Under the pieces are notes generated by a model. The model ran no database searches. It was not told the DNA's origin and worked only from the letters and a program-made list of their open reading frames with translations. Below are positions 10,001 to 63,450 of a DNA stretch of 64,000 nucleotides, piece after piece. This DNA comes from a virus, in the IMG/VR virus record IMGVR_UViG_3300046318_000520, positions 32,001 to 96,000 of that record; one strand, written 5' to 3'. Numbering within the stretch: position 1 is the stretch's first letter; the number at the start of each line of letters is the position of its first letter. A program made the position numbers and the translations under genes.

Positions 10001-13000
10001 TGGGCAGTACCAGCAATGAATTAGCTGTCCTTAAAAATGATCTATTAAACAATACACTCACAAAGGAATATTTAGAAAGCTTTAATGAAAGGCTTAGTAA
10101 AATACTTAACCTGCCTATTATAAAAGTACAAGAACTTTATGATCAGTTTCAGAAAGCATTAGACCCTAAGCAGGTAGAAAAAGATATTGCTGAAATGGGC
10201 TTTCCTGAAAACCCTACAGCTGAACAGGTTTTCCAGACAGTTAGCAAATACCTGCTGCCTAAATTTATTGATAGCCTTATTAACGCCGGATCTACTGAAG
10301 GTGGTAATATAGTTGGCTCTGATAAAGCCAACATGGAAGTTATAGAACTTCCTGCAATGAAAATAAAGTTAACAAAGCCTGCTCTTTTTGAAGGGGAAAA
10401 ACTTGTTGATGACGGTAAAAACGGAGTGTTTATTATAGAGACCGGTTTAGTAGCTGATCAGGCTAAACGTGATGAACTTATGAAGTTGATGGGTGCTGGC
10501 TCAACGGCAGGTGCCCCGGTTACAGCATTTATTGTTGTTAACTCTGATAGAGTAGATCCTGTAACATTAAGCAGTGATCTTGTAAGGTATCAAAAGAAAT
10601 CTGAAGCTTATACCGTAAGGGATGAGGCAATTAAAAACAGGGAACTGCAGGATAAAAAATCCAGATCATGGTACCAATTTGATGGTAAGGAAGTAAGAGC
10701 AGGCCTTGTTCTTACAAATAAGGATGGTAAATCCTTTGTTGTTGCCACAACGGGGCAGCCTTATTTTGCAAAGGATGATGTAGACAAAAAAGTTCCTTTA
10801 ATTAAAATTACCATGCTGCGTAATAACTCACGCACTAATACACATAGTTTTATATCCAGCTTAGAAGGATATAACATCAAACAAAAGGTTGAAAAGTTAA
10901 GCACAGGAGAACCTGTAGACACCAATACCTTTCGTTTATTTCGTACAGAAGAGCTGTCTCGTATCTTTCCTAACAAAGCAGCTAATGAGAGTAAGGAGGA
11001 TGCACAGAAAAGACTGGATACTCTTTTGAAAAACACAGATCCTAAAGAACTTCTTGCTGGTCTGTCTATTACTGTTTCAGAAAACCCAGGAACTCGTAGT
11101 TCAAAAAATGCAGGTGCTGATAGTGATAAAACACCTAATTCCAACCTTATACAATATGGTGATAAGTATCAGATTCAGATTAGTTATAAAGGACAAACTA
11201 TTGGTTTTTTAACTAACTATGATCATTTAAGGTTTGTAACTGCCAATGGTACACCTGTACCTATGAGCAATCTTACGCTTGATCAGTTTAGAAGCATTTT
11301 TGATTCTCAGGGTAAGGATCCAAAAGAACAAATGGAACTGTTCAAACGTGCGTATGAAAATTCCAGAAAAGTATATATTGCGCTGACCAAGAACATAAAG
11401 CCTGGTCAACCTGTATCTTTTACACCTGAACAAGTAGCTAAGATCTTAACAGTAAATATTGGGGCCGGTGAGTTTGACTTTGTACCAAAGACAGAAAAGG
11501 GAGTAACTTATGATGAGCTTCCTTTTAAAACAATCAATGGTTATTATTATATACTGGATCGTTCCAAGCGTTATGGCAAAGGTTACACTTTCTCAGTGAC
11601 TGAAAATGCTATTACCAATGCAAAAGGTGATGACCGTAAACAGATTGAAAAAGAAATAAAACTAATCAGGCAGCAGCGTGATGCTACAGAACAGCTTGGT
11701 CGTTACGTAGCTGTTATAAAACTACCCAATGGTAAGATAAGGTTTGTTGAACTGAATACAGAAGCAATGGCTGATACTCAGTTGAATGATATAATCACCA
11801 AGTTGAATGAACGCAGTGAAATCACTAAACGTGATAACCTGCAGGAAGGGCTCAATGAAAAGAAAGAGGTTATTCAAAACCGTAAGAAGATAGATTTTAA
11901 TGAAGAGCTAAATTCAGAGCTTGCTCAACAGTTGTTTCTTTCTGTACCCCAGGCTAATAAAGGAACCTACATAAACTTTTCTATTACAGATACTGGTAAC
12001 CTGGAACTTGCTTTTCATAAAAAAGTGGATAATAAAGATATCCGCAGGTCAGTTGTGGTCATGGGTAAGTCTGGCAAGGATCCAATTAATATCAAAAATA
12101 TTGATGATTTAATTAGCAGGATAAATGCTGCTATAGAGCGTCATGATAAATCATTTGCCAAGCGTGAAGTTGATCAGATTGGAATTACATTAAAAAAAGA
12201 AAACTTTAAACAGTCTACTCCGGATACATCTTATATTGATGATGTAAAAGGACTGAGGTCTAATGTTTCTGCAGATATTAGTAAGAATATACCTTTAACC
12301 ATTAAAGCGTCTTCAGATCTTAATATTCCGGAAATAACACCTGCACCTGCAGGAAATGCAGCCAACAAAGGTCAGGCTGATAGCAGTGGTATTGATCCAG
12401 CTATGAGAGCTGCCTTTTTTAAGGAAATGGGTGTAGAGGATACTACTAAGGGGCAGTCTCCTGCTCCAGGACAGCAACCTACTGAAACACCACTTCAGGC
12501 TTTATACGCACAACTTAATAGTCTTAAAAGTGAAAAAGAACTTGAGACTATAAAGCGCAGGGATGAAAAGATTGCTGCCGGTCAAAGACCATCTTTGGCA
12601 ATGCTTGAAGCTAATGATGAATCTTCTGCTATATATGATAAAAAGATTAAAGAGGCACAAGCCAAGGTAAATGCAGAAAAGAACTCAAACAAAGGTTCTG
12701 CACTTAAAGTTCTTGATAAACCATTCTTTGATCAGAACAGTATTGTAAGCATAGACAGGTTTCGTAAATACATCAGTAGAGTTTTAGGTGATAAAGTATC
12801 TGTCCAGGAAATGGATATGATAGCTGATAACTTAAAAAATAACAACATTACAGTAGGTAAGTTTATTGCCTACATGGAGTCAGTAAGAAAGGGAAGTCCT
12901 GTTGTAAAAGGTCGTATTGAGGTGGGTGAAAACACACCTTTTAAATACCATGAGGCATTTCACGCTGTATTCCGTTTGATGCTTACTGATGCACAAGTGG

Positions 13001-16000
13001 ACAAGCTGCTGGCCTATGCAAAAATGGAGTTTAAGAAAAGCCTTCTTCCTGGTCAGACTGTTGTATCTAAGATGGCTGAGATGCGTCAGCTGCATAAAGT
13101 ATATGCAGAGATGACAGATGTAGAGTTAGAAGAAAGAATGTATGAAGAATATATGGCCGATCAGTTTGATACATGGAAGATAAACCAGGATTCTAAAAAG
13201 GTTATTCCAGGTATTCGTGGCTTTTTTATGAAGCTCTGGGACATGATTACTTCTTTATTTAAGGGTGGCAAGAATCAATTAGAATCACTCTTTAAAGAAA
13301 TTGAACGTGGTAAGTACAGAAACGCCAAGATAGCGGACAATCGTTTTACCAAAGCTGACGCTCTTAGTGTTAGTGAGCCTGTGCTCAAAGCAATACAGGT
13401 GGGTACAATAGATGTACAGGATGAGAATGGTCAGTTTATTACTATACCTAAGTACCTGTCTCAGCAGGACGGGGATCAGATGGCAAGTACAGTAGCTTCT
13501 TTGTATCATAGCAGGGTTTTGAATAACACAAACAGCGGCTATAATAAGAAAGAAGTTTTAAATAATATATATGCAGATTTCCAGGAGCTCTATGACATCA
13601 ATGGAGCCAATCGTGAGTTTTATCTTAATGAAGCAGATGCTCTTTTTGAAACTGATCCTAACCTGGCAAAAGAATATCTTAACAGACTTGAACAAAGACA
13701 TACTATATTCTTAGAAAAAGACAATCGTCAGACTCTTTCTGAGTCAGTAGATATCCATCTTCGTGTAATGGGATACCAGCAGGAACTGGAAGATGATGAA
13801 TATATATCCATGGAAGACGAGTTTGGTTCCAGGGTTACTACTGAAAACTGGAAAGAAGCACATTCTATTGGTGGCTTTGGAAGCTTGAGTAAGTTTTTAC
13901 GTCAGTATATAGCATCTACTACTTTTATTCTGGACCGTGATGAGTTTGGAAATACCCAAATGGTTAACGGAGAACCATTGATCCAGGCTGTTAATGCCAA
14001 CCTTGTTTACAGCGGTATTTTAAAAGCCGTTGCTAACATTACAGATCAGAAAAAATTTGTCAACAGGCTTCTTGAATTAAAAAGTGCTGATACAGAAACC
14101 AGTAAGTTTCTAAATAAATTCTTTGATGAAGTTGGTCTGGAAATAGATCCTGATACAGGAGAGTTTGCAGTTACAAATTCAAAGCAGGCTACTTTATTTC
14201 AGATGGTTCTTAAAGGTTTTCAGCAGTATACAGTGGATTACATCTTTATAAACAAGGATGTACGTAAGTCTAAGAAGGTGTCAAGGCTTATGATTGCCAA
14301 CCGTATGGGAGCTGTTAAAGCACAGTTTACACAGTGGCAGAATGCGTATGTACATGTTTTTGAAGAACCTGTATTAAGACTTCGTTCTATTGAGGAGAGA
14401 AAAGAATTTGCTAAAGAAAAAACAGGGGCCCTGCAAGACTTGTTAACAAATCTTAATCCTACTGGATACATTTCTGATGAAGAACTGGCACTTGATTCTG
14501 AGATGTTAAGCAATCAGCTTAAGACAGATTTAGGTATTTCTTTATCTCCTTTGTATATTAAGTACGCCATAGCAGCATCTAAGAATGCTGATATAAAAAC
14601 TGAGGCTCAAAGAAAACTTAGTGAAAGCTATAGTGACGTTGTTGGTATTGATCCGGATGCTATAAAACAATTGATCAAGTCTGTACAGGCTCTGGAAAAT
14701 CCTTTTGCTAAAAACATTGAACCATCAAACCAGGATTTGGATGTTCCCGGACAAGATGATGACCAACAGGAAAAAGAGGCTATTGACAGCCTGGGAGAAG
14801 GAGGAGCTATAAAACGTGTTAGTGAGCTGGCTGCCGGTAATGCCGTCTTTGATGAGACAGTAAGCACTACTTCCTATAAAAATGCAGAAGGTGAACTTGT
14901 GTATGCGCATCAGCTTCCTACATATCATTTGGTTAAAGTAAATGAGTTCAACAATGATACTGAGCTGACTAACATGCAAGTATCTGACGAATTTATGCAG
15001 GGTAATATGTTGCTGGATTCTGCCAAGTTCCGTTCTATGAGCGGTGACTTTGTTGTAGAAAGAATTGAAGGAATGAAAAGCTCTATTCTTTCTGAAGATG
15101 AAGATGGTAATTTAAGAGAGGATAAAACAATTCAGAGTAACCAAAATGAGGGGATCACTTATGGATCATTCTCTGACCGTGAGTTCATTGTTTCTTTGTT
15201 GGATCTGTATGCTTATAATAAAACATATAAGAATACAGCAGGTACATTTAGAACAACACAGCATCTTATAAGAGTTATTGAAGCCTCTAATACAGGAGAT
15301 ACTATTTCACTGCCTGCAATTTCTGCTGTTACTTCTGATCAAAACGGCAAAGTAACATTAAGTCAGGAAGCGTTGACTATCCTGATGCAGGAAGTTGCCC
15401 GTGAGTTTGAACGTATCAAGCGTGTACGCAGAGAACTTGCCACTGGTGTATATGAGAATGGAGAAATTGAGGGATATCATTACGCTGTAGATGGGGATGG
15501 CCGCAGGACTAATAAAAAGGTTCCAAGGGGTCTGAAGTTTTACAAGACGGCTAATATGCTTGGAAGCCTTGCTTTGGAACTGGAAGAGTCATCCAGGAGC
15601 GGATCATTTGATTTAAGCTCCCGTGCAGCAGAAATCAATGCCCAATTTAAAAGATACTGGGAAGCCAGGATGGAAGAATTTGTAGACAAGCTTGATAACA
15701 TTGGTGTAGTAAGTACTGTAAAAAGTGAAGACCCTGAAGAAAACGGTAGGCTTATTAACAACCTGGTTGATGATTTTATTGAAATTGGTTTTACTGTTAA
15801 AGATGACGGTAAAGAAATACTGGATGAAAAAAGGAATCAAGATCTGAATATTATCCCAGGTAATATGAAACACAACCTGGGTCAGATCATGATGAATGAT
15901 TATCTAAACACAATGGCTGTAAATCAGCTTTTGTATGGAGATGAAGCCCGTGCCTTTAAAGATGAGATTGATCAGGTCAAGCGTGCAAAAGGAGCTAACG

Positions 16001-19000
16001 GTTCTGGTCAGTCTTTGGAGTCCTTGGTAACTAATGAAGAATTGGGTATTACAGAATCCTTCACTGAAAGTTATATATTAACTTTTACAGATCCTAAATA
16101 TAACGCCCGTTTTGCAGGTGGACTTAAAGATAAAGCAGATGCTCAGTCTTACCAGAGTGTGAAGTCAATGAGGTATACACTTCATGGACTTGGAAAACTT
16201 ACTCCGTATGCTGCCAAGATCCTTGATAAACTTGAGCGTGGTGACAAGCTTACCAAAGAAGAGGTATTTGGTCCTAGTGGTCTCAAAGCCATGGAAGCTA
16301 TGTTTAACTCTGAAAAGCTTGTTTACTTTGATGGTCCTCAGTATATCAAGACTTCTACAGTAATGCTTACAAAGGAATTGACTTCTGTATTGGTGAATGG
16401 TAAATGGCTTGCACGTCCTGGATATGAAGATCTGCACGACTTACGTGAGCGTCTTGAAAAGTTTGAAAAAGACAATAACACAGTAACTTTTGCTGCTCCT
16501 AAAAGTGCCAGCAAGGGACTTAAGAGAAATGTTTTTGATCATAATGAAGGGTTTCGTAATGCAAAAGATGATAACTTTTCCCGCCAAGAAACCAAATACT
16601 GGAGACTACAGTTGGTAAATCCTTCTAATAAAGTTATGATAACAGATCCTACGCAGGCAAAACAAATCATTATTGCAGAACAGAATGATGATACCTCTGT
16701 AGAATTTATGGGTGTTAACACCACTATTGGTGAACTTAAAAAAGCTTATTTAAACGATACAGCTCAGCGTGTCAACAATAACTATACAAGAACCAGAGAT
16801 GAAATATTTGACATAGAAGAAGGTTTCTCTGAACTTGGTAAAGCTATTCAGCAAGATAAAATATCTTCAAAGCTTGAAAAATTCCAGGCCAGGGCTATAG
16901 AAAATCTTAGGTCTACTGGGGCTGACAGCCAGCTTATTGAATTTTTCTCATTGGATCCGGAAACAGGAAAACCTAATTACAACCTGAACAATCCTGTCAC
17001 TCTGGAAAAATACACACAGCTGTTTCTGGCTTATTTTTCAAAAGGAGTACTTAGTGAAAAAATTCCTGGTCACTCTGTTGCTTTGATGTCTAACTACGGT
17101 ATAAAAGTAGTTAAAGTATTTACAGGTAAGTTTGACGAAAGCGGAGCACCTATTGGTCAGATTGTATCCAGGGATGAGGTTGAAAGAAACTACAACAAGT
17201 ACAAGAGCGTTAAAAAGTGGAACAACGATGTTGATCGTCAGTTTACAGGTCTTGTTGCCGGTGACATATACCTTGATGATTTAAGGCATAATGTACCAGA
17301 GTTTGATAGCAAGGGTAAAATCATAGGACGGTATACAGAGTTTATGATGCCTCCTCACTTCATGGAAGATATGGGTCTGAAACCAGGGGATAAAATACCT
17401 GACCATATAGCCAAAGCATTTGGAGTGCGTATTCCTTCACAGGATAAACATAGCTTTATTTCTCTTAAACTGGTAGATTTTCTACCTGCTTATTACGGAT
17501 CTACAGGTGTGTTCCCACATGAGCTGATTGAAATATCCGGAGCTGACTTTGACATTGATAAACTCTATATGCACATTGCAGATACGTATTCCAAAAATGG
17601 TAAGCGTATAGCATATGGTACAGAGAAATCCAAGACAGGCCGGTTTGAAGAATATGTACGCTGGAATGATAAAAACAATAAAGCATTTAGAGATACTTTA
17701 GATAAACTTAAAAAAGAGAATGTAAGATACCAGGAGCTTTTACAAAAGCAGGCTGCTATGAAACGTCTTGAAAAAGATATTGACAAAGCGTTTGATAATG
17801 TCCAGCAGAGTGATGGGTCAATTAAAGAAGGTTTTAACACGGCTATTTTGAGTGCAAGACTTGTAGATCAGGTTATAATGGGGCTTCTTGGTCAGGACCA
17901 AAATCTTGATGTAAAACAATATGACACTGAGTATGGTCTTATTGAGAGTGTCTACTTTATGAAAGATCTCAATGAGATGTTGAACAAGTTGGAAGAAAAA
18001 GACAAACGTGATTACTTGTTAGCAATGGGTTCTGACTTCTTCAATCAATTTGAAGACATCACAGCAAAGCTTGCAGATGTAGAAACAAGGCTTATTTCTG
18101 AGACACTTGCTGAATTAAAACTCCCCAGTTCTATTACTAAATATGCTGAGTCAGCTGAAGAATTGAACAACGGCGTGCTAAACAACCGTATCCTGGATCA
18201 AAAGATTGCAATGCTTAACAATGAGCATATGGTTAGCGGTGGAGAAAAGGCCATTGCTTATCAGGTAGCTTCTGTGGATGCATTAAAAAATCTTCTTGAT
18301 GAAAGCAAAGAAGGTAATTTGTTAGAGCTGCTCTCTATAGGTGTGGATGAAAATGGTAAAAAAATATATCCGGAAGGGCTTGCTGAGATCTTGTTGGAGG
18401 GTGGGGTAGATACTGACTCTATGCTTGGTAAGTATAAGGCATTTAAAAACAATAAGGAGGGTAGTCGTCTTATCGGTCCTGCTGTAAATTCAATGCTTAC
18501 ATATGCAGTGTTTAATAACTTTGGTATTTCATTACGTGATACAGCTATTGATCCAATAACCGGTGAGACTATTCAAATGTTCAAGTTTAAACTGAATGGA
18601 CATGTGTTCACAGGGTATAATGAAACCCGTAGTGCAAGGTTTGATGCTGAAGGCAAGTTCCAGGGCTATGATGGAGAGCGTGTATTTAATACTATTTCCA
18701 CTATTGTATCAGCTATGACCGATAACGCCAAAGAACGTTTGGCTGCTCGTCTTGGTTTGAATATAGAAGCTATAGGATATGTATCCAACATGGTTGCACA
18801 GGGTGTACCTATACAGTCTGCTATTATGTTTATGCTTCAGCCTGTAGTGCGTGAGTACTTTGAGCTTACAAAGATTGCATCTAATAATATTAAGACTGGT
18901 GCAGAAAGTGAAATTTACAAATCACAAGTTGCTAAAGAACTCAGGAATAAATATCTTGAACTGGCAGGTGAGGACTTTGTAAAAGAAGATATCACTGATG

Positions 19001-21414
19001 AAATATTAGTTGAAAATATAAAAAACAAAGGTGCCAGTGCTAACTATCAAGCTTCTGTTCTGTTAGACTTTATAGGTATTATAGATCAAAGTAAATATTA
19101 TGCAGCTGTAGCTCAGGTGTTAAAACTTACTAAGGGTCTTGGTACAAGTTTTGAAGACTATGATGCTATCAATGACAAAATTGAGATGCTGGGTCTAAGA
19201 GTTAGTGACGATAAACAATTTGAAAAGTTTATTCCGCAAGGACAGACAACACCTCCGCCTTTTGATCTCAGACAGATTCTCATGGGCTATGATAATGATA
19301 AACCTTATCATACAATTATTCAGCGTTATATCAAAATTGCTGATCAGATCAGTGAGATCAGTAAAGGTATGTTCCTTGAAAGAACTGCTGTGTTTAAAAG
19401 GATTGAAAATATCATTAAAGATAACTTGACAGTAAGATCCAGCTTGAAACAAAAGTTTAATTCAGATCTGAAAAAAGATCTGCTGTCATATCTTTCTATT
19501 AAAGCATATCGTAAATACCTTGCTGAAAATGGAAGATCAGGAACTCTTTCCACTATGACCAATGCTTTGATTTATGATGAAGCAGCTGTAGCAAAGGGTG
19601 ACAAGTTTAGTGATATAGTAGACGTTTTACGTGTAATCAGGGAGAAAATGCCAAATAACTATTTGGCCTCTAACTTTTTAAACATGATAAAGACCACTGT
19701 GGTGGACGCATCAGGTAATGCATCTCTTAATCCTAAAAACCGTGATGGTATTAATAAGATTGAGTCTAATACCTGGGCAAAACTTAGTGAGTATCAGGTA
19801 GAAAAGCTCCGTGATTCCTTTATAGAGATTTACCAGTCTGACATGGACTTTGATGGACAGGGTGCTAATGGACGTGACATGGCTAATGCTTTGTTTAACT
19901 ACCTGCTTGTAAAAGATGGTGGTCAGTTTAGAAGTGGTTCATTTATCAGGTATGTTCCCAATTTTATGTTCAATGATCTGTTGATGTCCACTGGTTTGGC
20001 TAATGATGTTATGAAGCTTTCTGTAAAGGCTGATAACGTAGATCAGATGGACGAGGCGTATAAAAAAGTGTTTGGTATTACTGCTGTAGAACTGTTCAAC
20101 GAGTTTATGGAAAACTATACCACACATGTAGGAAACTCTTACTATGTTAAAAAGCTTAGCTTAAATAATGAAACTAAGTTTGATCCTACAGGAAACTCTG
20201 AAATAGATGGTTTTGAACCTCAGTCTGTGGTTCCCAGCAAGAAAGAAGGATTTATTATTAACATATTTAAAGGTGTAAGAAAAAAGGAGCAGGCTGTATC
20301 TGAAATTACCCTTGAGGAACAAGCAGGTATTACATGGATGAGTGATGAAGATTATTTAGAGTATGTGGATAGCTTGACTGATGAACAAAAAGAGTTAGTT
20401 AAAGAACAACAGGCTAAATCCAAAAAGTATAATGATGTAGAGAAAGGTAAGTTTGCTAAGAACATGCAGTCTCTCAGGGATAAAGGGTTTAGAACAAACA
20501 CCAAGAACGAGGTAGAGTTTCCTTACATTATCAGGGTACCCGCCGGTGAAATGTTTACTGCAGATAGTTATTACATTCTTAAGTCTGTAAGAAAAGCTGG
20601 TCAGAACAAGGATAAAAAAATAGATTCTAAAAAGCTGATTCAGAAAAATGAAACTATTGCAGCAGGTGTTTCTGCAGTGTATGAGCCAGTTGAAAGAAAA
20701 GGATCCAGAAAAACCTTTAAAGGAGCTGCTATGTTTGATGCAATTCCTGAAACAGCTAAGCTTCCACGTTACCGTAAAGCGGTTGATAACAATTCAAGTT
20801 ATTCTCCTTTTTACCAGACAATGAATGCAGATGCTGAAAAAGAAGAGCTCTGGATGCAGAATCATGGTTTTGCACCAAAAGATTCTACTAAGGCGGCACC
20901 TGTTTCTGCACCTGTAGATACAGGCTCAAGGTCTCCAAAGGATGTACTTTTACAAGACTATGGTATCCAAATGAAGTATGACAGTGTTTTAAAAATGTTT
21001 ACCTTTGTTGGAGATATTTTGAATGATATTCCAGATGATATAAAATCCTCAGTAGGAGGTAATCCAAAAACACTTCTTTCTATGCTTGGATACAAACCTA
21101 CAGCTCCTGCTCCTCAGGTTCAGCAAGCTTCTCCACTACCTGCAGGCGTTCCAAAAATCAGCAAAGAAGCTGGAAAAGGAATATCAGATATGAACATGCG
21201 TAATAGCTTAATGGCCGCCATGTTTGGTCAACCTGCAACGTCTACTCCGGAGTCTACTCCTGGTGCAGGATCTCCTTCTGCAGGAACTAAAGTTGATGAT
21301 GTTACATTGAGTGAAACAGCGGCTAAAGGTATCTCTGATATGGAGAAGTATAAACAGCTTATGAGAGCAATGAATGGTGAAAATCCACTCAATGATGAGT
21401 GTGCCCAGCCATAA
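7039..21414 (+). CDS. Giant virion-packaged RNA polymerase polyprotein (crAss-like, phi14:2 gp66-type) with zincin-like domain
   Basis: RIPSQ (17428) and ISGADFDIDKLY (DFDID at 17545-17559) double-psi-barrel RNAP motifs; HEAFH...EEYMAD zincin motif at 12949; Gly/Ala-rich hydrophobic N-terminal segments; 4791 aa. Confidence 0.9.
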   Translation: MAVPTGVIPEELMGAYSEDPFLSLPAQSELGMLDLIGNTGMSQGPAVQDAVQNGLDAFAKQPTSMETLSAPRFFDYEGAQTDRYKQSDNFRELGFDPFGGTENEYKYGARQTWGDVWSNGLSGMFKLAGNTYLEGWKGWGNLADAVYSDGNWFNADKLMGSSEELLAQDKATKDIMNKYAIFSTPESEEGLFNRKFFGDMLQQSGFAVGAIGQFLTEELITMGLSTEFSLAKLGIKAPAWAGKVVTKADIAADIVKLGNPVVQSTRLSEALVQGARSIVPFADMAYDINRYKKAGAGALQIASIGAGGVRRFLSEANMAMTEARMEAAGTYGELYNKLYDESLNATGQAPSGLELNNMEKTAKDAAFDNFMVNTGILMLSNRLQFDNLFSKFGVGRNVLGAAGEYADDVLKVTGKRAGQEAVENFTKTYAKGRFGTLGVLGGIAADFGKKRAAWEATKSFGKNLFKWEASEGIQELLQEGSNKGLQDYYYDLYHGNKGYDSKTDAMLSSIQNPLTDLEGAKTFLMGALTGRLLSPINFAMGSAKKYASTTAEQRAERTADLEKTVFTINAFYENPQLFLNEHIANVKVQDRAAKNMEEAVVNRDKYQFVNNKDGAFAKLMSAAMKTDMYKAVTDTIRGYGENFNDEDFKKAFGIDKTEENMSSVKDYFNKIADETDSFQKNWKALKEKYGDRVLLDLYKEGTPERKTALMAKRALDDALEILATNNYKATRSAERAVKLQTDMAAIPVLGSSAAAAFRNLAVVQNTAKETELIEQELKSLELVEKKDRATKELIKTKKEQLKSLKDWSENYEVLKGQGVKQKRKFKKAVKAFENYFRSKNMESGITQEVKLDQIDEIYTNLIDYIELNNDSKDYIDAYNIIANPIKFAQVHARLLDAMEVTGNKLNAEHLQEAANALNPQAPPAGNPQQPGGSPSTEAPDFMQYLKDAWDSQTVTGSTTLPFDEWLKSPVAKTFTELYNKKYNKTEKLGSTSNELAVLKNDLLNNTLTKEYLESFNERLSKILNLPIIKVQELYDQFQKALDPKQVEKDIAEMGFPENPTAEQVFQTVSKYLLPKFIDSLINAGSTEGGNIVGSDKANMEVIELPAMKIKLTKPALFEGEKLVDDGKNGVFIIETGLVADQAKRDELMKLMGAGSTAGAPVTAFIVVNSDRVDPVTLSSDLVRYQKKSEAYTVRDEAIKNRELQDKKSRSWYQFDGKEVRAGLVLTNKDGKSFVVATTGQPYFAKDDVDKKVPLIKITMLRNNSRTNTHSFISSLEGYNIKQKVEKLSTGEPVDTNTFRLFRTEELSRIFPNKAANESKEDAQKRLDTLLKNTDPKELLAGLSITVSENPGTRSSKNAGADSDKTPNSNLIQYGDKYQIQISYKGQTIGFLTNYDHLRFVTANGTPVPMSNLTLDQFRSIFDSQGKDPKEQMELFKRAYENSRKVYIALTKNIKPGQPVSFTPEQVAKILTVNIGAGEFDFVPKTEKGVTYDELPFKTINGYYYILDRSKRYGKGYTFSVTENAITNAKGDDRKQIEKEIKLIRQQRDATEQLGRYVAVIKLPNGKIRFVELNTEAMADTQLNDIITKLNERSEITKRDNLQEGLNEKKEVIQNRKKIDFNEELNSELAQQLFLSVPQANKGTYINFSITDTGNLELAFHKKVDNKDIRRSVVVMGKSGKDPINIKNIDDLISRINAAIERHDKSFAKREVDQIGITLKKENFKQSTPDTSYIDDVKGLRSNVSADISKNIPLTIKASSDLNIPEITPAPAGNAANKGQADSSGIDPAMRAAFFKEMGVEDTTKGQSPAPGQQPTETPLQALYAQLNSLKSEKELETIKRRDEKIAAGQRPSLAMLEANDESSAIYDKKIKEAQAKVNAEKNSNKGSALKVLDKPFFDQNSIVSIDRFRKYISRVLGDKVSVQEMDMIADNLKNNNITVGKFIAYMESVRKGSPVVKGRIEVGENTPFKYHEAFHAVFRLMLTDAQVDKLLAYAKMEFKKSLLPGQTVVSKMAEMRQLHKVYAEMTDVELEERMYEEYMADQFDTWKINQDSKKVIPGIRGFFMKLWDMITSLFKGGKNQLESLFKEIERGKYRNAKIADNRFTKADALSVSEPVLKAIQVGTIDVQDENGQFITIPKYLSQQDGDQMASTVASLYHSRVLNNTNSGYNKKEVLNNIYADFQELYDINGANREFYLNEADALFETDPNLAKEYLNRLEQRHTIFLEKDNRQTLSESVDIHLRVMGYQQELEDDEYISMEDEFGSRVTTENWKEAHSIGGFGSLSKFLRQYIASTTFILDRDEFGNTQMVNGEPLIQAVNANLVYSGILKAVANITDQKKFVNRLLELKSADTETSKFLNKFFDEVGLEIDPDTGEFAVTNSKQATLFQMVLKGFQQYTVDYIFINKDVRKSKKVSRLMIANRMGAVKAQFTQWQNAYVHVFEEPVLRLRSIEERKEFAKEKTGALQDLLTNLNPTGYISDEELALDSEMLSNQLKTDLGISLSPLYIKYAIAASKNADIKTEAQRKLSESYSDVVGIDPDAIKQLIKSVQALENPFAKNIEPSNQDLDVPGQDDDQQEKEAIDSLGEGGAIKRVSELAAGNAVFDETVSTTSYKNAEGELVYAHQLPTYHLVKVNEFNNDTELTNMQVSDEFMQGNMLLDSAKFRSMSGDFVVERIEGMKSSILSEDEDGNLREDKTIQSNQNEGITYGSFSDREFIVSLLDLYAYNKTYKNTAGTFRTTQHLIRVIEASNTGDTISLPAISAVTSDQNGKVTLSQEALTILMQEVAREFERIKRVRRELATGVYENGEIEGYHYAVDGDGRRTNKKVPRGLKFYKTANMLGSLALELEESSRSGSFDLSSRAAEINAQFKRYWEARMEEFVDKLDNIGVVSTVKSEDPEENGRLINNLVDDFIEIGFTVKDDGKEILDEKRNQDLNIIPGNMKHNLGQIMMNDYLNTMAVNQLLYGDEARAFKDEIDQVKRAKGANGSGQSLESLVTNEELGITESFTESYILTFTDPKYNARFAGGLKDKADAQSYQSVKSMRYTLHGLGKLTPYAAKILDKLERGDKLTKEEVFGPSGLKAMEAMFNSEKLVYFDGPQYIKTSTVMLTKELTSVLVNGKWLARPGYEDLHDLRERLEKFEKDNNTVTFAAPKSASKGLKRNVFDHNEGFRNAKDDNFSRQETKYWRLQLVNPSNKVMITDPTQAKQIIIAEQNDDTSVEFMGVNTTIGELKKAYLNDTAQRVNNNYTRTRDEIFDIEEGFSELGKAIQQDKISSKLEKFQARAIENLRSTGADSQLIEFFSLDPETGKPNYNLNNPVTLEKYTQLFLAYFSKGVLSEKIPGHSVALMSNYGIKVVKVFTGKFDESGAPIGQIVSRDEVERNYNKYKSVKKWNNDVDRQFTGLVAGDIYLDDLRHNVPEFDSKGKIIGRYTEFMMPPHFMEDMGLKPGDKIPDHIAKAFGVRIPSQDKHSFISLKLVDFLPAYYGSTGVFPHELIEISGADFDIDKLYMHIADTYSKNGKRIAYGTEKSKTGRFEEYVRWNDKNNKAFRDTLDKLKKENVRYQELLQKQAAMKRLEKDIDKAFDNVQQSDGSIKEGFNTAILSARLVDQVIMGLLGQDQNLDVKQYDTEYGLIESVYFMKDLNEMLNKLEEKDKRDYLLAMGSDFFNQFEDITAKLADVETRLISETLAELKLPSSITKYAESAEELNNGVLNNRILDQKIAMLNNEHMVSGGEKAIAYQVASVDALKNLLDESKEGNLLELLSIGVDENGKKIYPEGLAEILLEGGVDTDSMLGKYKAFKNNKEGSRLIGPAVNSMLTYAVFNNFGISLRDTAIDPITGETIQMFKFKLNGHVFTGYNETRSARFDAEGKFQGYDGERVFNTISTIVSAMTDNAKERLAARLGLNIEAIGYVSNMVAQGVPIQSAIMFMLQPVVREYFELTKIASNNIKTGAESEIYKSQVAKELRNKYLELAGEDFVKEDITDEILVENIKNKGASANYQASVLLDFIGIIDQSKYYAAVAQVLKLTKGLGTSFEDYDAINDKIEMLGLRVSDDKQFEKFIPQGQTTPPPFDLRQILMGYDNDKPYHTIIQRYIKIADQISEISKGMFLERTAVFKRIENIIKDNLTVRSSLKQKFNSDLKKDLLSYLSIKAYRKYLAENGRSGTLSTMTNALIYDEAAVAKGDKFSDIVDVLRVIREKMPNNYLASNFLNMIKTTVVDASGNASLNPKNRDGINKIESNTWAKLSEYQVEKLRDSFIEIYQSDMDFDGQGANGRDMANALFNYLLVKDGGQFRSGSFIRYVPNFMFNDLLMSTGLANDVMKLSVKADNVDQMDEAYKKVFGITAVELFNEFMENYTTHVGNSYYVKKLSLNNETKFDPTGNSEIDGFEPQSVVPSKKEGFIINIFKGVRKKEQAVSEITLEEQAGITWMSDEDYLEYVDSLTDEQKELVKEQQAKSKKYNDVEKGKFAKNMQSLRDKGFRTNTKNEVEFPYIIRVPAGEMFTADSYYILKSVRKAGQNKDKKIDSKKLIQKNETIAAGVSAVYEPVERKGSRKTFKGAAMFDAIPETAKLPRYRKAVDNNSSYSPFYQTMNADAEKEELWMQNHGFAPKDSTKAAPVSAPVDTGSRSPKDVLLQDYGIQMKYDSVLKMFTFVGDILNDIPDDIKSSVGGNPKTLLSMLGYKPTAPAPQVQQASPLPAGVPKISKEAGKGISDMNMRNSLMAAMFGQPATSTPESTPGAGSPSAGTKVDDVTLSETAAKGISDMEKYKQLMRAMNGENPLNDECAQP

Positions 21415-42005: not shown

Positions 42006-43079
42006 TTATAATTCTGAGCCCACATCTGCTGAAGGGCTTGTTTCAGTTTTTTTTCTCTGGCTACGGGGTATATAATCACTGGTACCACCTGGGTTATCTG
42101 CACTAGGTGGTATGATTTCCATCATTCTCTGACGATTAAACTCTGCTTCAAAGAAAAGTATAGGGTCATTGTTACTGGCATTACGTACTTTAAGCAAGTG
42201 CATAAAGATGTGGTTCTCGTCACAATGAAACTTTTGCGGACCGTAACACCGGATGTCTGCTTTTGCAGGACGGTTTAGTACCACCAGCATATCAGATCCC
42301 TGCATCAGGGCGTCACCGCCAAAAATGTCAGATGATGTAGGATAGTTAGCAATAGATCCTGGTGTTTTACGGGCAGCTTCGTCAATGGTACGGTTGAGCT
42401 GAGAAAGCATAATCACTATGATAGGCAGCTCATTTTTTATTTTCATGAGCATTTCTACTGTATTATACAGCGTGGTGATTTTTTCTTTTTCAGACGGGTT
42501 CTTTTTAACCAGCCAGGAGTGATCTATAGTTACAATCAATGGATTACCGCTTGGTTTACCATCTTTACCAGGAAGCGTATTATAAAAATGATGTATGGCA
42601 TCATATATTTCCTGGTGAGTCATTGGCGTACCTAAAAACAACCTATGTATTCCTTTAGCGTACATAGCTTTTGTTTCTTGCCTATATCTTTCCAGCATCT
42701 GCATGCTCCATTCATCAAGCTGTTGATGACTGCTTAACACTACATTATAATCCTTGGCAATCTGGGCAGCAAAGTCACGTGTGCCGTATTGCTTAGTGCC
42801 CATTTCAAACTGGAATTCCAGCAGGTTAAAAGGCATGTTTGGATTACGGGTGTGTGATTCCCTAAGCAGTTGAGAAGCCACCATTGTTTTACCTGAGCCC
42901 GGACGGGCAGCAATAGTCAATATGGTTCCCCATTCCAATCCGTTGATACCGGCATTGTTAAGTCCAGCCCACGGTGTTTTAAAGGAAGTAATTCTTCCTG
43001 TTCTACGGTCCTGTATATACTTTAGTGAATCATCAAGAACTTCCAGGTAATTCTTGGCACCATAAAGAAGCTGGCTCAT
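42006..43079 (-). CDS. dnaB: DnaB-like replicative helicase
   Basis: AARPGSGKT, FQFEM, TIDHS, LSQLNR, P..SD..G. Confidence 0.88.
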   Translation of the reverse strand: MSQLLYGAKNYLEVLDDSLKYIQDRRTGRITSFKTPWAGLNNAGINGLEWGTILTIAARPGSGKTMVASQLLRESHTRNPNMPFNLLEFQFEMGTKQYGTRDFAAQIAKDYNVVLSSHQQLDEWSMQMLERYRQETKAMYAKGIHRLFLGTPMTHQEIYDAIHHFYNTLPGKDGKPSGNPLIVTIDHSWLVKKNPSEKEKITTLYNTVEMLMKIKNELPIIVIMLSQLNRTIDEAARKTPGSIANYPTSSDIFGGDALMQGSDMLVVLNRPAKADIRCYGPQKFHCDENHIFMHLLKVRNASNNDPILFFEAEFNRQRMMEIIPPSADNPGGTSDYIPRSQRKKTETSPSADVGSEL

Positions 43080-58991: not shown

Positions 58992-59867
58992 TTGACCATG
59001 TTTCTTACGAAATCCTTAGATTACGCTTTTGACAAGCTAAATGTGGAGCCACATACCAAAGAGTGTGTGGCTTCTTCATTGAAATACATTCAACTGGCCA
59101 TACGCAAGCTTGCATTCAATCAAATAGAAACCAGTAAGATCACCAGAAAGCATATCAGACTAATCATGGACCAGTGTGAGCAGGATCGTAAGCTCTCACC
59201 ACGCAACTGGAATGCATACAGGACGTACCTGGTTATGCTCTTTGAACAGTTGGTAGAATATGAGCTAGTGGATGATAATCCTGTCATACAGCTTAAAAAA
59301 CGCCAGGAAGATGATGTGATCAGAAAAGTGCTCACTTTAGAGCAGCGTAATCTGCTAATTAACCACCTTACTGAGACAGATCCTGTGTTTTTACGCTTTA
59401 TCAAGATATTCTTTCATTCCGGTGCCAGACGTACTGAACTCTTTAGTCTGCGTATAGAAAACATATACCTGGAAAAAGGATCCTACCAGGTTTTCGTCAA
59501 AAAAGGACGAAAGAAACGCTGGGTTACCAAAGTCATAAAAGACATTGCCCTTCCTTTATGGAGGGAGCAGATCAGTGATCACTTGACCGGATATATATTT
59601 TCTACAGGATTGTTACCAGGTCCAAATCAGATTAGACCTGAACAGGCAACACGCAGGTGGAAAAGACATGTTAAAGATAAATTGAACATAAAAGCAGATT
59701 TGTATTCCTTAAAACATCTGAACACAGATGAAGTGTCTGCAGAGCTGTCTTTGGCAGAAGCAGCACGGCTTAATAGTCACTCTATACAGATGGCTAGAAA
59801 ACATTATGCTATAAATGAGTCAACAAGGGAACTGGAACGGTTAAAAAAGATCTCAAACCACTTTTAA
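58992..59867 (+). CDS. int: Tyrosine recombinase / integrase
   Basis: SAM-like core-binding domain (SPRNWNAYR), FHSGARRTEL (R), YSLKH, NSHS...KHY (H, Y). Confidence 0.88.
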   Translation: MTMFLTKSLDYAFDKLNVEPHTKECVASSLKYIQLAIRKLAFNQIETSKITRKHIRLIMDQCEQDRKLSPRNWNAYRTYLVMLFEQLVEYELVDDNPVIQLKKRQEDDVIRKVLTLEQRNLLINHLTETDPVFLRFIKIFFHSGARRTELFSLRIENIYLEKGSYQVFVKKGRKKRWVTKVIKDIALPLWREQISDHLTGYIFSTGLLPGPNQIRPEQATRRWKRHVKDKLNIKADLYSLKHLNTDEVSAELSLAEAARLNSHSIQMARKHYAINESTRELERLKKISNHF

Positions 59868-60424: not shown

Positions 60425-61276
60425 TTAAAAGATATACCGGATACCAGCCGGATCAAAGAATTCTGCATACAGTTTGGTAAAGTCCTGTATCATTTGACGT
60501 TTAAGCTGCCATTGGTAACGGATATTATCTGGTGCATACTGGCTGTCTTTCATTTCCTGTATGTCTGGTCTCCAGATTAATGATCTCACCTCATCTGAGT
60601 TACGAGCATGTTGATGTACATTATGTGTGAGGAATATACACTCACACTTGACATTTATACCAGCTTCCCAGATTTCCTTAAAAAGTTTGTGATACTCAAC
60701 TAACCACCCGTCATGATAAATGATAGGAGAGAAGTTGATGTGCACTTCCATGTGATTCTGTAGCCTAGTAATACTAGCTATACGATCTGAGATTTTATCT
60801 GTACCTGGTTCTAATACATCAGAATATATCTGAGGCATCAGGCTTACCCTGACTCTGTGTTTGACCGGGTCCATATTGTACCAATAAGGTAACAACATTG
60901 TAGGATACTTGGTAGCAAACGTGCTTTTAGCCTTGGGCTCTACATTGAAATAGTCAAAGACTATTTGCCAATCATAATGCTTACGCATAAGAGCTACGTC
61001 AGTGCTGCATCCAATATCAATAGTGTAATATTCAGAATCTACTTGATTAGGAATCTTCGGCCAGGGTTGTTTTTGTACCCATTGATCTACAGATGCTATA
61101 ATGGGTAAGAAGTTTTCATTGACATACACTTTGTCATGATTATATCTACCTACATAGCAGTAGGAGGACATACATCCTCCTAAACAGCCATATATAAAGT
61201 TTGGACTGATAGCATCAGAGCTACGTCCATTGTCTCTTGTAATAAGAGTTTTAGTTTTTTGCTTGATGATCTGCAT
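60425..61276 (-). CDS. Spore photoproduct lyase-family radical SAM protein (TIGR03886-like)
   Basis: GCLGGCMSSYCY cluster, DIGCSTD, FATK, RVRVSLMP, EVHINFSP, IFLTHN, LIW.P..QE.K.S...N.RY. Confidence 0.8.
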   Translation of the reverse strand: MQIIKQKTKTLITRDNGRSSDAISPNFIYGCLGGCMSSYCYVGRYNHDKVYVNENFLPIIASVDQWVQKQPWPKIPNQVDSEYYTIDIGCSTDVALMRKHYDWQIVFDYFNVEPKAKSTFATKYPTMLLPYWYNMDPVKHRVRVSLMPQIYSDVLEPGTDKISDRIASITRLQNHMEVHINFSPIIYHDGWLVEYHKLFKEIWEAGINVKCECIFLTHNVHQHARNSDEVRSLIWRPDIQEMKDSQYAPDNIRYQWQLKRQMIQDFTKLYAEFFDPAGIRYIF

Positions 61277-61380
61277 TAGTTTTTTGTTTTACAAGTGGGA
61301 CAGATCGGTAGACTCTTTTTCTTTTTATAAAAAGTCTGTGTAAATAGCTTTCTACAGTTTTTGCATTTTATCCATTTCAT
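61276..61380 (-). CDS. Tiny Zn-ribbon protein (34 aa; not in ORF track)
   Basis: MKWIKCKNCRKLFTQTFYKKKKSLPICPTCKTKN*; TAATG-coupled to the SPL-like gene. Confidence 0.6.
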   Translation of the reverse strand: MKWIKCKNCRKLFTQTFYKKKKSLPICPTCKTKN

Positions 61381-61383
61381 AGG

Positions 61384-61548
61384 TCATTTTGTTTCTTCTT
61401 TTTCTGTCCTGTGAATATGTGTTGTTCTGATATTTGTCTGACTGATTACAGGTCTGTCAGACGTAATAATACGATAGGCTAAAGCAGCACCAGTAACTGT
61501 AAAAAAGATCATTAGGCCACCGCCTGTTAGAGAAAGAAATGTATCCAT
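61384..61548 (-). CDS. Small membrane-anchored protein (54 aa; not in ORF track)
   Basis: N-terminal hydrophobic segment; fills the gap in the operon. Confidence 0.5.
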   Translation of the reverse strand: MDTFLSLTGGGLMIFFTVTGAALAYRIITSDRPVISQTNIRTTHIHRTEKEETK

Positions 61549-61575
61549 GGTTTATGGTTTAATTGTTAAAGAAAG

Positions 61576-61604
61576 AAAAACCTCCAGTGTAGAAACACCG
61601 GAGG
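61576..61604 (-). terminator. Terminator downstream of tmRNA
   Basis: Minus strand CCTCCGGTGT-ttct-ACACTGGAGG followed by a U-run. Confidence 0.7.
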
Positions 61605-61634
61605 AAAATTTATAATAAACAATAAAAAACTAAG

Positions 61635-62413
61635 TGGAGGTAGCCGGATTTGAACCGGCGTCCAAACGAGAAGTCAATAAACAAAGAGATGTTACATGCT
61701 TAGTACTGATATCTACTCCGGGATCCCGTATGTAAATAATCTGCACCGTAGTTTTGATCTGTTCATTATGTATATCCCGGCAACATGTGTTACGTTAGTT
61801 CAAAAGAACTCGTACAACTCATGGGAGGAGCGGCATCATCTCCATTCTGTCTTAAAAACAATATGAACTAATCAGTAGGGCTGACCATGTTATGGTCCGA
61901 TCCACCACCTGGTTTTAGCTATCAAGTGTGAAACCAGGAAAGTCCACTTTTATACAAGAGGGCACAGGAAGCATACAGTCAGAACTTTGAGAGTTCAATA
62001 CTCTTAACGGTTCGTTTGGCCCAGTGTTTATTACCCTTTTCCCCAACCGCCTATCGTCTGTTTAGGTTCCTGACAATGTATAATAGGAGGGCTGGATGTA
62101 CGTTCATGACTTTGGGAGCGTAACTCTTAATATCAATGGGCTAGTGTTTATCCTCCTGTTTTTTTGGACCTCATCTATCCAATGTTCCAGAGATGCCGTT
62201 TTGCCATTTTCTGTTGCCAGGGATAGCTCCCCCGTAGGTTAGGCTGCTACTGCAACCTCACCGAAGATAGAAGCTAAAATAGCTTCACCTTCTGCTACAC
62301 GAGAAGACTGTGTCTTGCCGTTTAAAAGTTAGCTCCGTGATTAAAGTGGTTTGAGAACCTTCCCACTGCATGTTTGCTTACCACTCACAAGTCTGTCAAA
62401 ACCTGTTACCCCC
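61635..62413 (-). ncRNA. ssrA: tmRNA, unusually long (~779 nt)
   Basis: 5' GGGGGTA pairs with 3' TACCTCC-A including G3:U70; TTTTGACAG D-loop; T arm GCCGG-TTCAAAT-CCGGC; helix 2 pairings (ACATGC/GCATGT); PK1; resume context TTTTAAAC-GGC; tag ending AVAA*. Confidence 0.93.
62239..62319 (-). other. tmRNA tag reading frame (A)GKTQSSRVAEGEAILASIFGEVAVAA*
   Basis: 26 codons plus TAA after the resume motif; Ala-Ala C-terminus. Confidence 0.8.
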
Positions 62414-62419
62414 ATATTG

Positions 62420-62671
62420 CTAGTTTAAATCTAATGCTTTAGTCCACTTCTTACAAGAAGCTACAGGATCTTTAACATAGTCTGTTAATTCAGCCATTGC
62501 AGCCAACGGATCTGTAAATGCAATGGATTTACATCCAACACGTACTACGCAGCCTGAAGTAAAAAACTGAATAGTCACTTCATACTGCTGTCTTAATTGA
62601 TCAGCTGTAGGAATGTACTGATCTGAATAATCATTTTGTGGTTCTGGAACATGTGATAAATCCGGTCTCAT
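62420..62671 (-). CDS. Hypothetical protein
   Basis: GCVVRVGCK motif; ends 6 nt before the tmRNA 5' end. Confidence 0.65.
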   Translation of the reverse strand: MRPDLSHVPEPQNDYSDQYIPTADQLRQQYEVTIQFFTSGCVVRVGCKSIAFTDPLAAMAELTDYVKDPVASCKKWTKALDLN

Positions 62672-62713
62672 TGTTTGTTTTTTTTGTGTTATAAATCCTA
62701 TCTAAAGTTTAAC

Positions 62714-63049
62714 TTATCCTTTAATGTCTACGTGAATTGTTTTACCTGATAAAACATCCTCTATCAGGTCCTCAATCATCTGACGTTGCTCTGCGTTCAA
62801 CAGAGATACTCTATCCACTATTGCCGGTGTGGCAAATGGATCTGACTTGATCTCTACTGATATTCCTTTTCTTACATCGTCATCAAAATGAGGAAAAGTT
62901 AGTATGTCAGTGATGATCCAGTTTAGCCTGCGGGAATAGTCCTTAAAAATATAAGCACCACGAGTATTTGGTGTGGATCTTATAAAATCTTGCATAAATT
63001 CATTTGCCATCTTTACATGTTGTATGGCTTGTACAATATTACTGACCAT
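62714..63049 (-). CDS. Hypothetical protein
   Basis: ORF in operon. Confidence 0.65.
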   Translation of the reverse strand: MVSNIVQAIQHVKMANEFMQDFIRSTPNTRGAYIFKDYSRRLNWIITDILTFPHFDDDVRKGISVEIKSDPFATPAIVDRVSLLNAEQRQMIEDLIEDVLSGKTIHVDIKG

Positions 63050-63353
63050 GAGCTTCAGATTTTACAAGGTCAAGAGCTATTTGGTGTCCAGCTAATGCAT
63101 CTTCATGAGATGTATAACGTTTCTGGTACTGATCATGCTCACCACCAAATATCATAGTCTCCCATAATATAGGAGTATCAGATCCTAATGGTGCATGATT
63201 AAACCCAAGAAATACAGTAGAGACACGAATATCATCGTTTATACGATCTTGCTGAGTGATCTTCATTTCAGCATCTTCATAAAGCTTAAGTGATTCTTGA
63301 AGGGACACCTCGTAAGGTTTTTTGTCCTTGTCTAAAAGATAAAAGTGAGCCAT
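63039..63353 (-). CDS. Conserved phage protein (VSTVFLG..H...ETMIFGG family)
   Basis: Motif as named; likely start is MAHF at 63353, downstream of the tRNA-like element. Confidence 0.65.
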   Translation of the reverse strand: MAHFYLLDKDKKPYEVSLQESLKLYEDAEMKITQQDRINDDIRVSTVFLGFNHAPLGSDTPILWETMIFGGEHDQYQKRYTSHEDALAGHQIALDLVKSEAHGQ

Positions 63354-63381
63354 AGTGTTGTGGTTTTGAGATAAATAAGAG

Positions 63382-63450
63382 TAACCAGGGCTGGATTCAA
63401 ACCAGCGTTCATACTCCATAAGAGGTGCCTATTCTCTTGGCTACCTGGTT
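63382..63450 (-). tRNA. tRNA-like element with shortened/aberrant anticodon arm (identity unassignable)
   Basis: Acceptor AACCAGG/CCTGGTT-A, TA-GCC..GGC D arm, GCTGG-TTTGAAT-CCAGC T arm; only 19 nt between position 26 and the T arm. Confidence 0.65.

Follow-up and report, generated by a model that had tools for sequence, protein, structure and literature searches.

tmRNA is an RNA of about 350 nt with up to four pseudoknots (PMC1168896). The number of pseudoknots varies between lineages, and tandem pk4a and pk4b are found in one-chain cyanobacterial tmRNAs (Burks et al. 2005, PMC1168896). As far as the available sections of that work go, two of the connecting regions of pk1 are very short and one spans 1–11 nt, and pk2 and pk4 are 'similar in design' (PMC1168896). 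The available sections of a 2025 database paper recognise only standard, intron and permuted forms of the tmRNA gene, confine the introns to the T loop and separate the intron forms by a limit of 500 bp together with a score cut-off; two-piece tmRNAs exist in other lineages (PMC11915505). The tmRNA gene of a freshwater phage analysed here is twice the usual length, partly owing to two copies of a knotted RNA module in the linker between PK2 and PK3. The parts of the tmRNA literature that were available describe no such modules, and the supplements of these papers might list long standard-form or phage tmRNAs. The fold of the module, which matches no Rfam family, is to that extent previously undescribed.

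The window, the whole stretch of 64,000 nt that was analysed, corresponds to bases 32001–96000 of a phage record of 127,703 bases (127.7 kb) rated 99% complete. The tmRNA gene, of 779 nt, lies on the minus strand (62413–61635) in an ORF-free stretch flanked by two small ORFs, and it starts with GGGGGUAACAGGUUUUGAC and ends with GGACGCCGGUUCAAAUCCGGCUACCUCCA. Its complementary ends, picked up by a script, form an acceptor stem of 7 bp with G3:U70 (GGGGGUA/UACCUCC; 5′ strand 62413–62407, 3′ strand 61642–61636), and the T arm, GGUUCAAAUCC, is present along with the discriminator A at 61635. The tag reading frame, GKTQSSRVAEGEAILASIFGEVAVAA, read from the sequence, extends on the minus strand from the GGC resume codon to UAA (62239..62319; UAA at 62241–62239). 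It comprises 26 codons and ends in ..GEVAVAA (VAVAA-stop), so that the hydrophobic ..AA and stop after PK1 by which a tmRNA is recognised are found in this gene; the same tag type was called by ARAGORN in the related loci G001, L077, L082 and L088. Downstream on the same strand lie PK2 (62203..62233; a GGGG..CCC hairpin whose loop GCUAU pairs with AUGGC), drawn by eye and from the alignment to G001, and PK3 (61902..61938; the hairpin CCUGGUUU/AAACCAGG with a downstream GUGGUGG), drawn by eye. The PK3 region includes 27 nt that are identical in the alignment of this gene with those of G001 and G004.

Neither ARAGORN (0 genes) nor Rfam at gathering score (0 matches) reports anything over the window. 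In E-value mode, RF00023 gives a weak match at the 3′ end of the gene only (61632–61727, 17 bits, E 1.7e-4), below the Rfam gathering cut-off of 47 bits. This shortfall is due to the inserts of 252 and 126 nt described below, and the gene is therefore still classed as a tmRNA. The relatives G001 and G004 pass the cut-off with 90.4 and 70.2 bits, as do several loci bearing modules (L043, 66.2; L031, 64.3; L058, 48.7; L023, 48.5 bits). With the gene as query, blastn gave no match among 50,697 phage records. No SmpB gene (PF01668) was matched within the 127.7-kb phage record, and host SmpB would be used as the partner of the phage tmRNA. Long tags are usual in this phage tmRNA group: ARAGORN called 29 tmRNAs in 49 loci, most of them with tags of 22–29 residues, such as ..RVAEGEAILASIFGEVAIAA and ..MTFDDLMAFVGADYALAA. 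The tmRNA of one relative, L051, carries a group I intron in its T loop (7071–7287; RF00028, 85.5 bits); the same locus has two Rfam tRNA matches spanning 125 and 128 nt (246–370 and 522–649; 37.8 and 33.3 bits), both of which are tRNA genes carrying inserts of about 50 nt. L071 and L076 show no 3′ end within 700 nt.

The reason for the length becomes apparent from comparison with relatives. The tmRNAs of G001 and G004, 418 and 447 nt long, have the same unusual tag, and in the alignment the gene in the window is collinear with them apart from two inserts. Insert 1 (61949..62200, minus strand, 252 nt, from the alignment to G001) lies between PK2 and PK3 and contains both modules; the repeats flagged by the original prediction fill it. 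Insert 2 (61751..61876, minus strand, 126 nt), delimited by the alignment and by RNA-library contigs, is a stem-closed domain exactly between CCCU and UACGG. Removing the two leaves 401 nt (779 − 252 − 126), the size of the relatives, and relatives of 401–418 nt have no modules. Among the tmRNAs sampled, lengths run from 344 nt (ARAGORN calls) to 779 nt, and the gene in the window is the longest. Insert 2, in the PK4 region, is unrelated to the modules, with no match to the covariance models R1 or R2. Its closing stem is UGAUU-A-GUUCAU / AUGAAC-A-GAUCA; L025 has the same insert (about 94% identical), other hairpins with similar closing stems occupy the site in L043, L056 and L058, and the site is empty in G001, G004 and L023. 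The PK2–PK3 linker, too, holds unrelated inserts in G004, L021, L032 and L033. A third shared insert, ACAGAGUCCUAUGAUGG...GGCGUGCUGA, unmatched by R1 or R2, occurs after PK2 or after a gamma module in five related tmRNAs (L031, at 2725–2810, L032, L033, L043 and L056).

Both modules adopt a shared predicted fold, an H-type pseudoknot in which helix S1 crosses helix P2, with P1b as a side hairpin and P3a/P3 as a long hairpin whose two parts are separated by a conserved AUUAA/CCAAA internal loop. Copy 1, of the alpha type, is 106 nt long (62085..62190, minus strand), as delimited by the match of R1, a model in which it is not included, and by a block table. Its S1 strands are S1a (62190–62185) and S1b (62097–62092); P1b pairs 62182–62178 with 62168–62164, P2 pairs 62157–62152 with 62090–62085 (AGGAGG/CCUCCU), P3a pairs 62135–62132 with 62110–62107, and P3 pairs 62126–62123 with 62119–62116. 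The AUAAACA strand lies at 62151–62145, and the internal loop is made of AUUAA (62131–62127) and CCAAA (62115–62111). Copy 2, of the beta type, is 114 nt long (61959..62072, minus strand), with S1a at 62072–62067, S1b at 61970–61965, P1b (62065–62061 with 62047–62043), P2 (62037–62032 with 61964–61959, AGGGUA/UGCCCU), the AUAAACA strand (62031–62025), P3a (62013–62010 with 61985–61982) and P3 (62003–62000 with 61994–61991). An outer closing stem, P0 (UUAUACA, 62083–62077, with UGUAUAA, 61956–61950), extends copy 2 to 61950..62083 on the minus strand. Among all copies, the first loop of the pseudoknot measures 22–30 nt and carries a hairpin, the second measures 50–61 nt and carries P3a/P3, and the third 0–2 nt.

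The original prediction, which had located two diverged copies of an unrecognised motif inside the tmRNA at 62157–62085 and 62037–61957, was right in coordinates and letters and in the placement of the cores. Its end of copy 2 at 61957 is 2 nt too long, and each unit extends some 33–35 nt further 5′, through S1a and hairpin P1b. Its remark that the closing stems differ in sequence and yet pair holds for P2 of both copies. Of the blocks that it took as invariant, AUAAA.A, UUAAGA and UC.CAAA recur in 10/10 copies, together with GGAA of S1a; UGA and GUA do not, the beta relatives having UUA and the gamma copies neither.

The conservation of the fold was assessed on A7, a model-made alignment of 10 rows (9 distinct) that stand for no more than about four independent lineages (alpha, beta, L058 and gamma). 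In A7, S1 corresponds to columns 1–6 with 105–110 and P2 to columns 38–43 with 112–117, both 88.7% paired. Over 25 pairs (212 cells counted), 90.6% of the cells pair, against 74.0 ± 2.0% in shuffles (0/500 reach it); 16 of the 25 pairs are changed on both sides, against 9.7 (0/500), and the covariation score is 0.519, against 0.222 (0/500), in an alignment that was fitted to nested helices, towards which these pair counts lean, and that mis-registers P3a and S1b in some rows. Sliding the partner strand by 1–3 columns lowers the pairing to 36–52% and the pairs changed on both sides to 2–5, and a count of further standard pair types is not above shuffles (151/500). S1 lies outside the model that made A7, yet its second pair switches from A-U to U-A. 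The MAFFT alignments A3 and A4 were discarded; because they misplace the 3′ strands, A7 and a hand-made block table were used.

The block table, made with the pairs known and thus an illustration of the model rather than a test of it, has P3a, P3 and S1 pairing in every copy. P3a varies among UGAU/GUCA, UGAU/AUCA, GAAC/GUUC, GACU/GGUC, CGC/GCG, CGU/GCG and CGU/ACG, P3 among GAGU/GCUC, GAGC/GCUC and GAAC/GUUC, and P1b among UUGGA/UCCAA, CCGAC/GUCGG, CCUGG/CCAGG and UUAGAA/UUCUAA, and S1 pairs C(U or A)GGA with UCC(A or U)G (CWGGAA with UUCCWG). Beside these freely covarying stems, 27 of the 117 columns are invariant, most of them unpaired. P0 lies at a fixed distance in beta and gamma copies and its letters differ among beta copies; copy 1 lacks it, and in copies taken one at a time it is not significant (21–165 of 1000 shuffles reach it; 163/1000 for copy 2). 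Minimum free energy folding, by programs that ignore pseudoknots, is no better than for shuffles (z −1.72 for copy 1, −0.27 for copy 2 and +1.23 for insert 1). Inspection by eye led us to reject another hairpin around the GGAA strand, CAUCU/AGAUG in copy 1 and AUUGUC/GACGAU in copy 2, which is broken in L058 and absent in L031B. We speculate that GCC pairs with GGC of the P1b loop in a tertiary contact that does not vary in beta and gamma, is absent in alpha and is lengthened only in L025.

A covariance-model search, which the original prediction had proposed, retrieved homologs. R1 was trained only on four beta copies (copy 2 of the window, L023, L025 and L058), and in a search space of 138.8 kb it finds all six of the other copies (6/6) at full length, with limits exactly as drawn by eye. 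They score 43.6 (L051), 38.5 (L043 and L056), 38.3 (L031A), 35.7 (copy 1 of the window) and 28.4 bits (L031B), with E-values from 5.6e-5 (L031B) to 7.8e-9, that of copy 1 being 7.9e-7. This recovery of copy 1 by a model that includes copy 2 shows that the two are homologous, far beyond what chance would give. Together with the covariation in A7, it bears out the original view of a genuine conserved, structured RNA module in which stems covary and unpaired blocks are conserved. The two are far diverged: their cores agree at 52/81 positions, and the best core match of copy 1 is L031B (56/73, no gaps). A direct repeat search of the gene gave only one 24-nt repeat (75%, spacing 120), and one shared 9-mer within 780 nt is, by our own estimate, to be expected by chance. 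With so low a core identity, the two are not a recent tandem duplication and are old paralogues or separate acquisitions. No further copy was found elsewhere in the phage's own 127.7-kb genome.

In total, 10 module copies, 9 of them distinct, are found in eight phage tmRNA loci. Loci were gathered by pattern scans with conserved tmRNA words and a degenerate motif, giving 49 with a tmRNA of the broad phage group (13 found first and 36, L064–L099, added), among which some are near-identical and L071, L076 and L087 are putative tmRNAs. Modules are present in 8 of the 49, namely the window (two copies), L023, L025, L058, L031 (two copies), L043, L056 and L051, a biased fraction because L043, L051, L056 and L058 came in through the motif itself. 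Each of the eight loci is a tmRNA, in which the first module invariably comes after PK2. L023, L025 and L058 have beta alone and L051 gamma alone; L043 and L056 have gamma with the third shared insert, L031 has the same plus alpha, and the gene in the window combines alpha with beta. G001, L082 and L088 have none, and the same backbone is found without a module in G001 (compared with the window) and in L082 (compared with L058).

No copy emerged in the other loci searched. R1 and R2 gave none in four other sets (62, 62, 80 and 59 sources; 0.51–0.58 Mb each). Genomes of 185,579 prokaryote species, one per species, contained no match to the strict motif; the loose motif gave at least 120 stretches in prokaryote genomes, and among the matches listed 0 of 80 loci is a module by R2. 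The bacterial and archaeal loci checked contain no module. Loose patterns in IMG/VR (28 and 31 stretches) returned tmRNA copies only, and two exact two-copy patterns returned 0 stretches each; these are too strict, since the relatives differ in them. Weak model matches with E of 0.07–1.3 (L068, L076, L103, L105, L120, L132, L195, L197 and L204, window 42763–42821 and L056 3367–3426) were set aside as noise. The neighbouring 283-aa protein also led to seven related loci, in none of which is it flanked by a tmRNA.

All or part of the stretch is present in 24 listed runs. Three RNA-library runs and one DNA run among them were examined as contigs, which cannot show RNA ends; only stretches with contig cover served as evidence, and the other runs with a share below 0.2 did not. 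A 437-nt contig of RNA run X13 lies inside the gene (61919–62359), running through PK2 and both modules into the start of PK3, and 61877–62324 is covered by a 581-nt contig of RNA run X18, which belongs to another study. One loose end of the X18 contig matches G004 in the PK1 region and the other matches L077 in the PK4 region, so that the whole contig represents a mosaic tmRNA that bears both modules and lacks insert 2. This combination of a G004-type PK1, window-type alpha and beta modules and an L077-type PK4 suggests that tmRNA genes of co-occurring phages recombine frequently. Run X16 has a G001-type junction without insert 1 and yet includes the start of insert 2. In the contigs examined, no joint cleanly skips a module; the only joint, from 61948 to 62201 in an RNA-library contig, has 120 other letters between its sides and reflects a variant that carries another insert rather than a splice. 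Among the variants, copy 1 differs at one or two places, and the changes in copy 2 include a U-A to C-G replacement in P3, a pattern of substitutions by which both modules are under constraint. Since contigs from the RNA libraries of two studies run through both modules, the modules are probably retained in the RNA rather than removed by splicing, although the contigs may stem from contaminating DNA or from precursors.

The two copies are best explained, with a probability of about 0.58, as accessory pseudoknot domains of the phage tmRNA pseudoknot ring, which would have a structural or ring-extending role within the tmRNA. Each module would form a self-contained fold of 100–115 nt in which S1 crosses P2, the first loop bearing P1b and the second the AUAAACA strand and the P3a/P3 hairpin. 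In most copies the module would be closed by P0, by which it could plug into the PK2–PK3 linker and leave the tRNA-like domain, the tag frame and PK1–PK4 undisturbed. The modules presumably stay in the mature tmRNA and would enlarge the ring, which in cryo-EM structures stays outside the ribosome, around the 30S head. The A-rich conserved strands may lock a compact knob through tertiary contacts, and this knob may stabilise the RNA or offer a docking surface. For the core rescue reaction itself, the modules would be dispensable, because relatives of 401–418 nt do without them. A further reading is a purely neutral expansion that is folded only to avoid misfolding.

The invariance of 27/117 mostly unpaired columns beside freely covarying stems could also mark an autonomous module that is merely scaffolded by the tmRNA, either a metabolite aptamer or a decoy or binding site for a host or phage protein, with a job separate from rescue. 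The number, type and order of the modules do vary in otherwise similar tmRNAs, and in the RNA-library variants no part has changed less than copy 1. A plain pseudoknot, however, also needs conserved A-rich loops for its own tertiary contacts. Moreover, no Rfam riboswitch, ribozyme or protein-binding family matches the module even at E up to 10, as the original prediction had stated for twister, pistol, hatchet and hammerhead ribozymes and common riboswitches, and all 13 weak matches of Rfam 15 in 61400–62700 at that threshold fall outside the flagged 61957–62190. The module was never found outside tmRNA in the loci searched, it has no expression platform, and the phage offers neither a partner gene that we could find nor an SmpB gene. 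The original suggestion of an aptamer, ribozyme or protein-binding module finds no support as stated, and we regard an autonomous module as on the whole unlikely. The wider proposal that phage tmRNA acts as a scaffold, carrying on the ring outside the ribosome independent functional RNAs (metabolite or protein aptamers, for instance, or host-factor decoys) that are swapped between phages as cassettes, is rather doubtful; if it is true, a second activity would be linked to ribosome rescue, or control it, in the course of infection.

It is improbable that the modules are selfish or mobile inserts, intron-like elements or recombination cassettes that are removed from the mature RNA or irrelevant to it. 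Their clean presence or absence at one site in two tmRNA backbones, the unrelated inserts that this site holds in G004, L021, L032 and L033, the mosaic tmRNA variants and the true group I intron in the T loop of L051 would all accord with such an origin. However, 100–115 nt are too few for a group I or group II intron, RF00028 has no match in 61400–62700 at E up to 10 in the same analysis in which this model was effective on L051 (85.5 bits), the genome of 127.7 kb holds no other copy, and RNA-library contigs of two studies cross both modules with no joint cleanly skipping one. Covariation shows selection on the fold, which a self-splicing element would show as well. A self-cleaving or processing element that cuts the ring to yield a two-piece tmRNA is a very remote prospect: although two-piece tmRNAs are known from other lineages (PMC11915505) and the module has a compact pseudoknot with conserved unpaired nucleotides, no Rfam ribozyme matches, the RNA-library contigs are continuous across both modules and the gene order is not permuted. 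A chance resemblance of two A-rich stretches without any conserved element, which the core identity of only 52/81, the expected 9-mer in 780 nt and the weak MFE z-scores might have suggested, is refuted by the R1 search (E 7.9e-7 for copy 1) and by the covariation counts in ten copies with covarying stems, and retains next to no probability.

If the modules are accessory domains of the ring, their closest counterparts are the tmRNA pseudoknots pk1–pk4 and pk4a/pk4b, with which they share the H-type topology of two crossing helices and a location in the ring, after the tag frame and ahead of the 3′ tRNA-like half. The original prediction had named ordinary duplicated tmRNA pseudoknots as the outcome that would overturn it. 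The modules are indeed H-type pseudoknots in the pseudoknot region, but they are distinct from PK2, PK3 and PK4, which persist beside them; they are additional to these and replace none. They are two to three times larger than the known pseudoknots, their second loop of 55–60 nt contains a hairpin and invariant blocks, an outer stem closes most copies, and their presence varies among close relatives. They also depart from the short connecting regions described in the available text on pk1 (PMC1168896). With the T-loop group I introns of the 2025 database paper, they have in common that a discrete insert takes the tmRNA gene beyond 500 nt (PMC11915505, available sections); they differ in their site in the PK2–PK3 linker, in the lack of an RF00028 match, in being too small and in their presence in RNA-library contigs. 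Among other RNAs, the expansion segments of rRNA and the variable domains of RNase P RNA are lineage-specific, stem-closed inserts at tolerant surface sites of an essential RNA. The modules resemble these as lineage-specific, stem-closed structured inserts and differ in their strongly conserved unpaired blocks, their pseudoknot and their variation between very close relatives.

The genomic surroundings of the gene are partly conserved. The order of a 126-aa ORF, the tmRNA, a 54-aa ORF and a 283-aa ORF (window 60425–63419) is common to L023 and L025, two additional small ORFs, of 83 and 111 aa, precede the tmRNA in the window, and in G001 and G004 the tmRNA is located elsewhere in the genome. 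A tyrosine-integrase-like ORF (window 58992–59867, plus strand; phrog_1, E 1.1e-23) lies 1.8 kb from the tmRNA gene, which is complete and not an attachment-site fragment. The PHROGs matches in the phage comprise only DNA polymerase, helicase, ATPase, exonuclease and integrase. On the plus strand, a single ORF of 4791 aa occupies window 7039–21414 and is followed by one of 1518 aa.

In freshwater phages, a new conserved RNA fold thus occupies the PK2–PK3 linker, which is an insertion-tolerant site of tmRNA. An intron-free, one-piece tmRNA can reach 779 nt by stacking conserved knotted modules and is then missed by both ARAGORN and Rfam, and gene finders under-call such tmRNAs. The natural variants with zero, one or two modules make the role of the pseudoknot ring directly testable.
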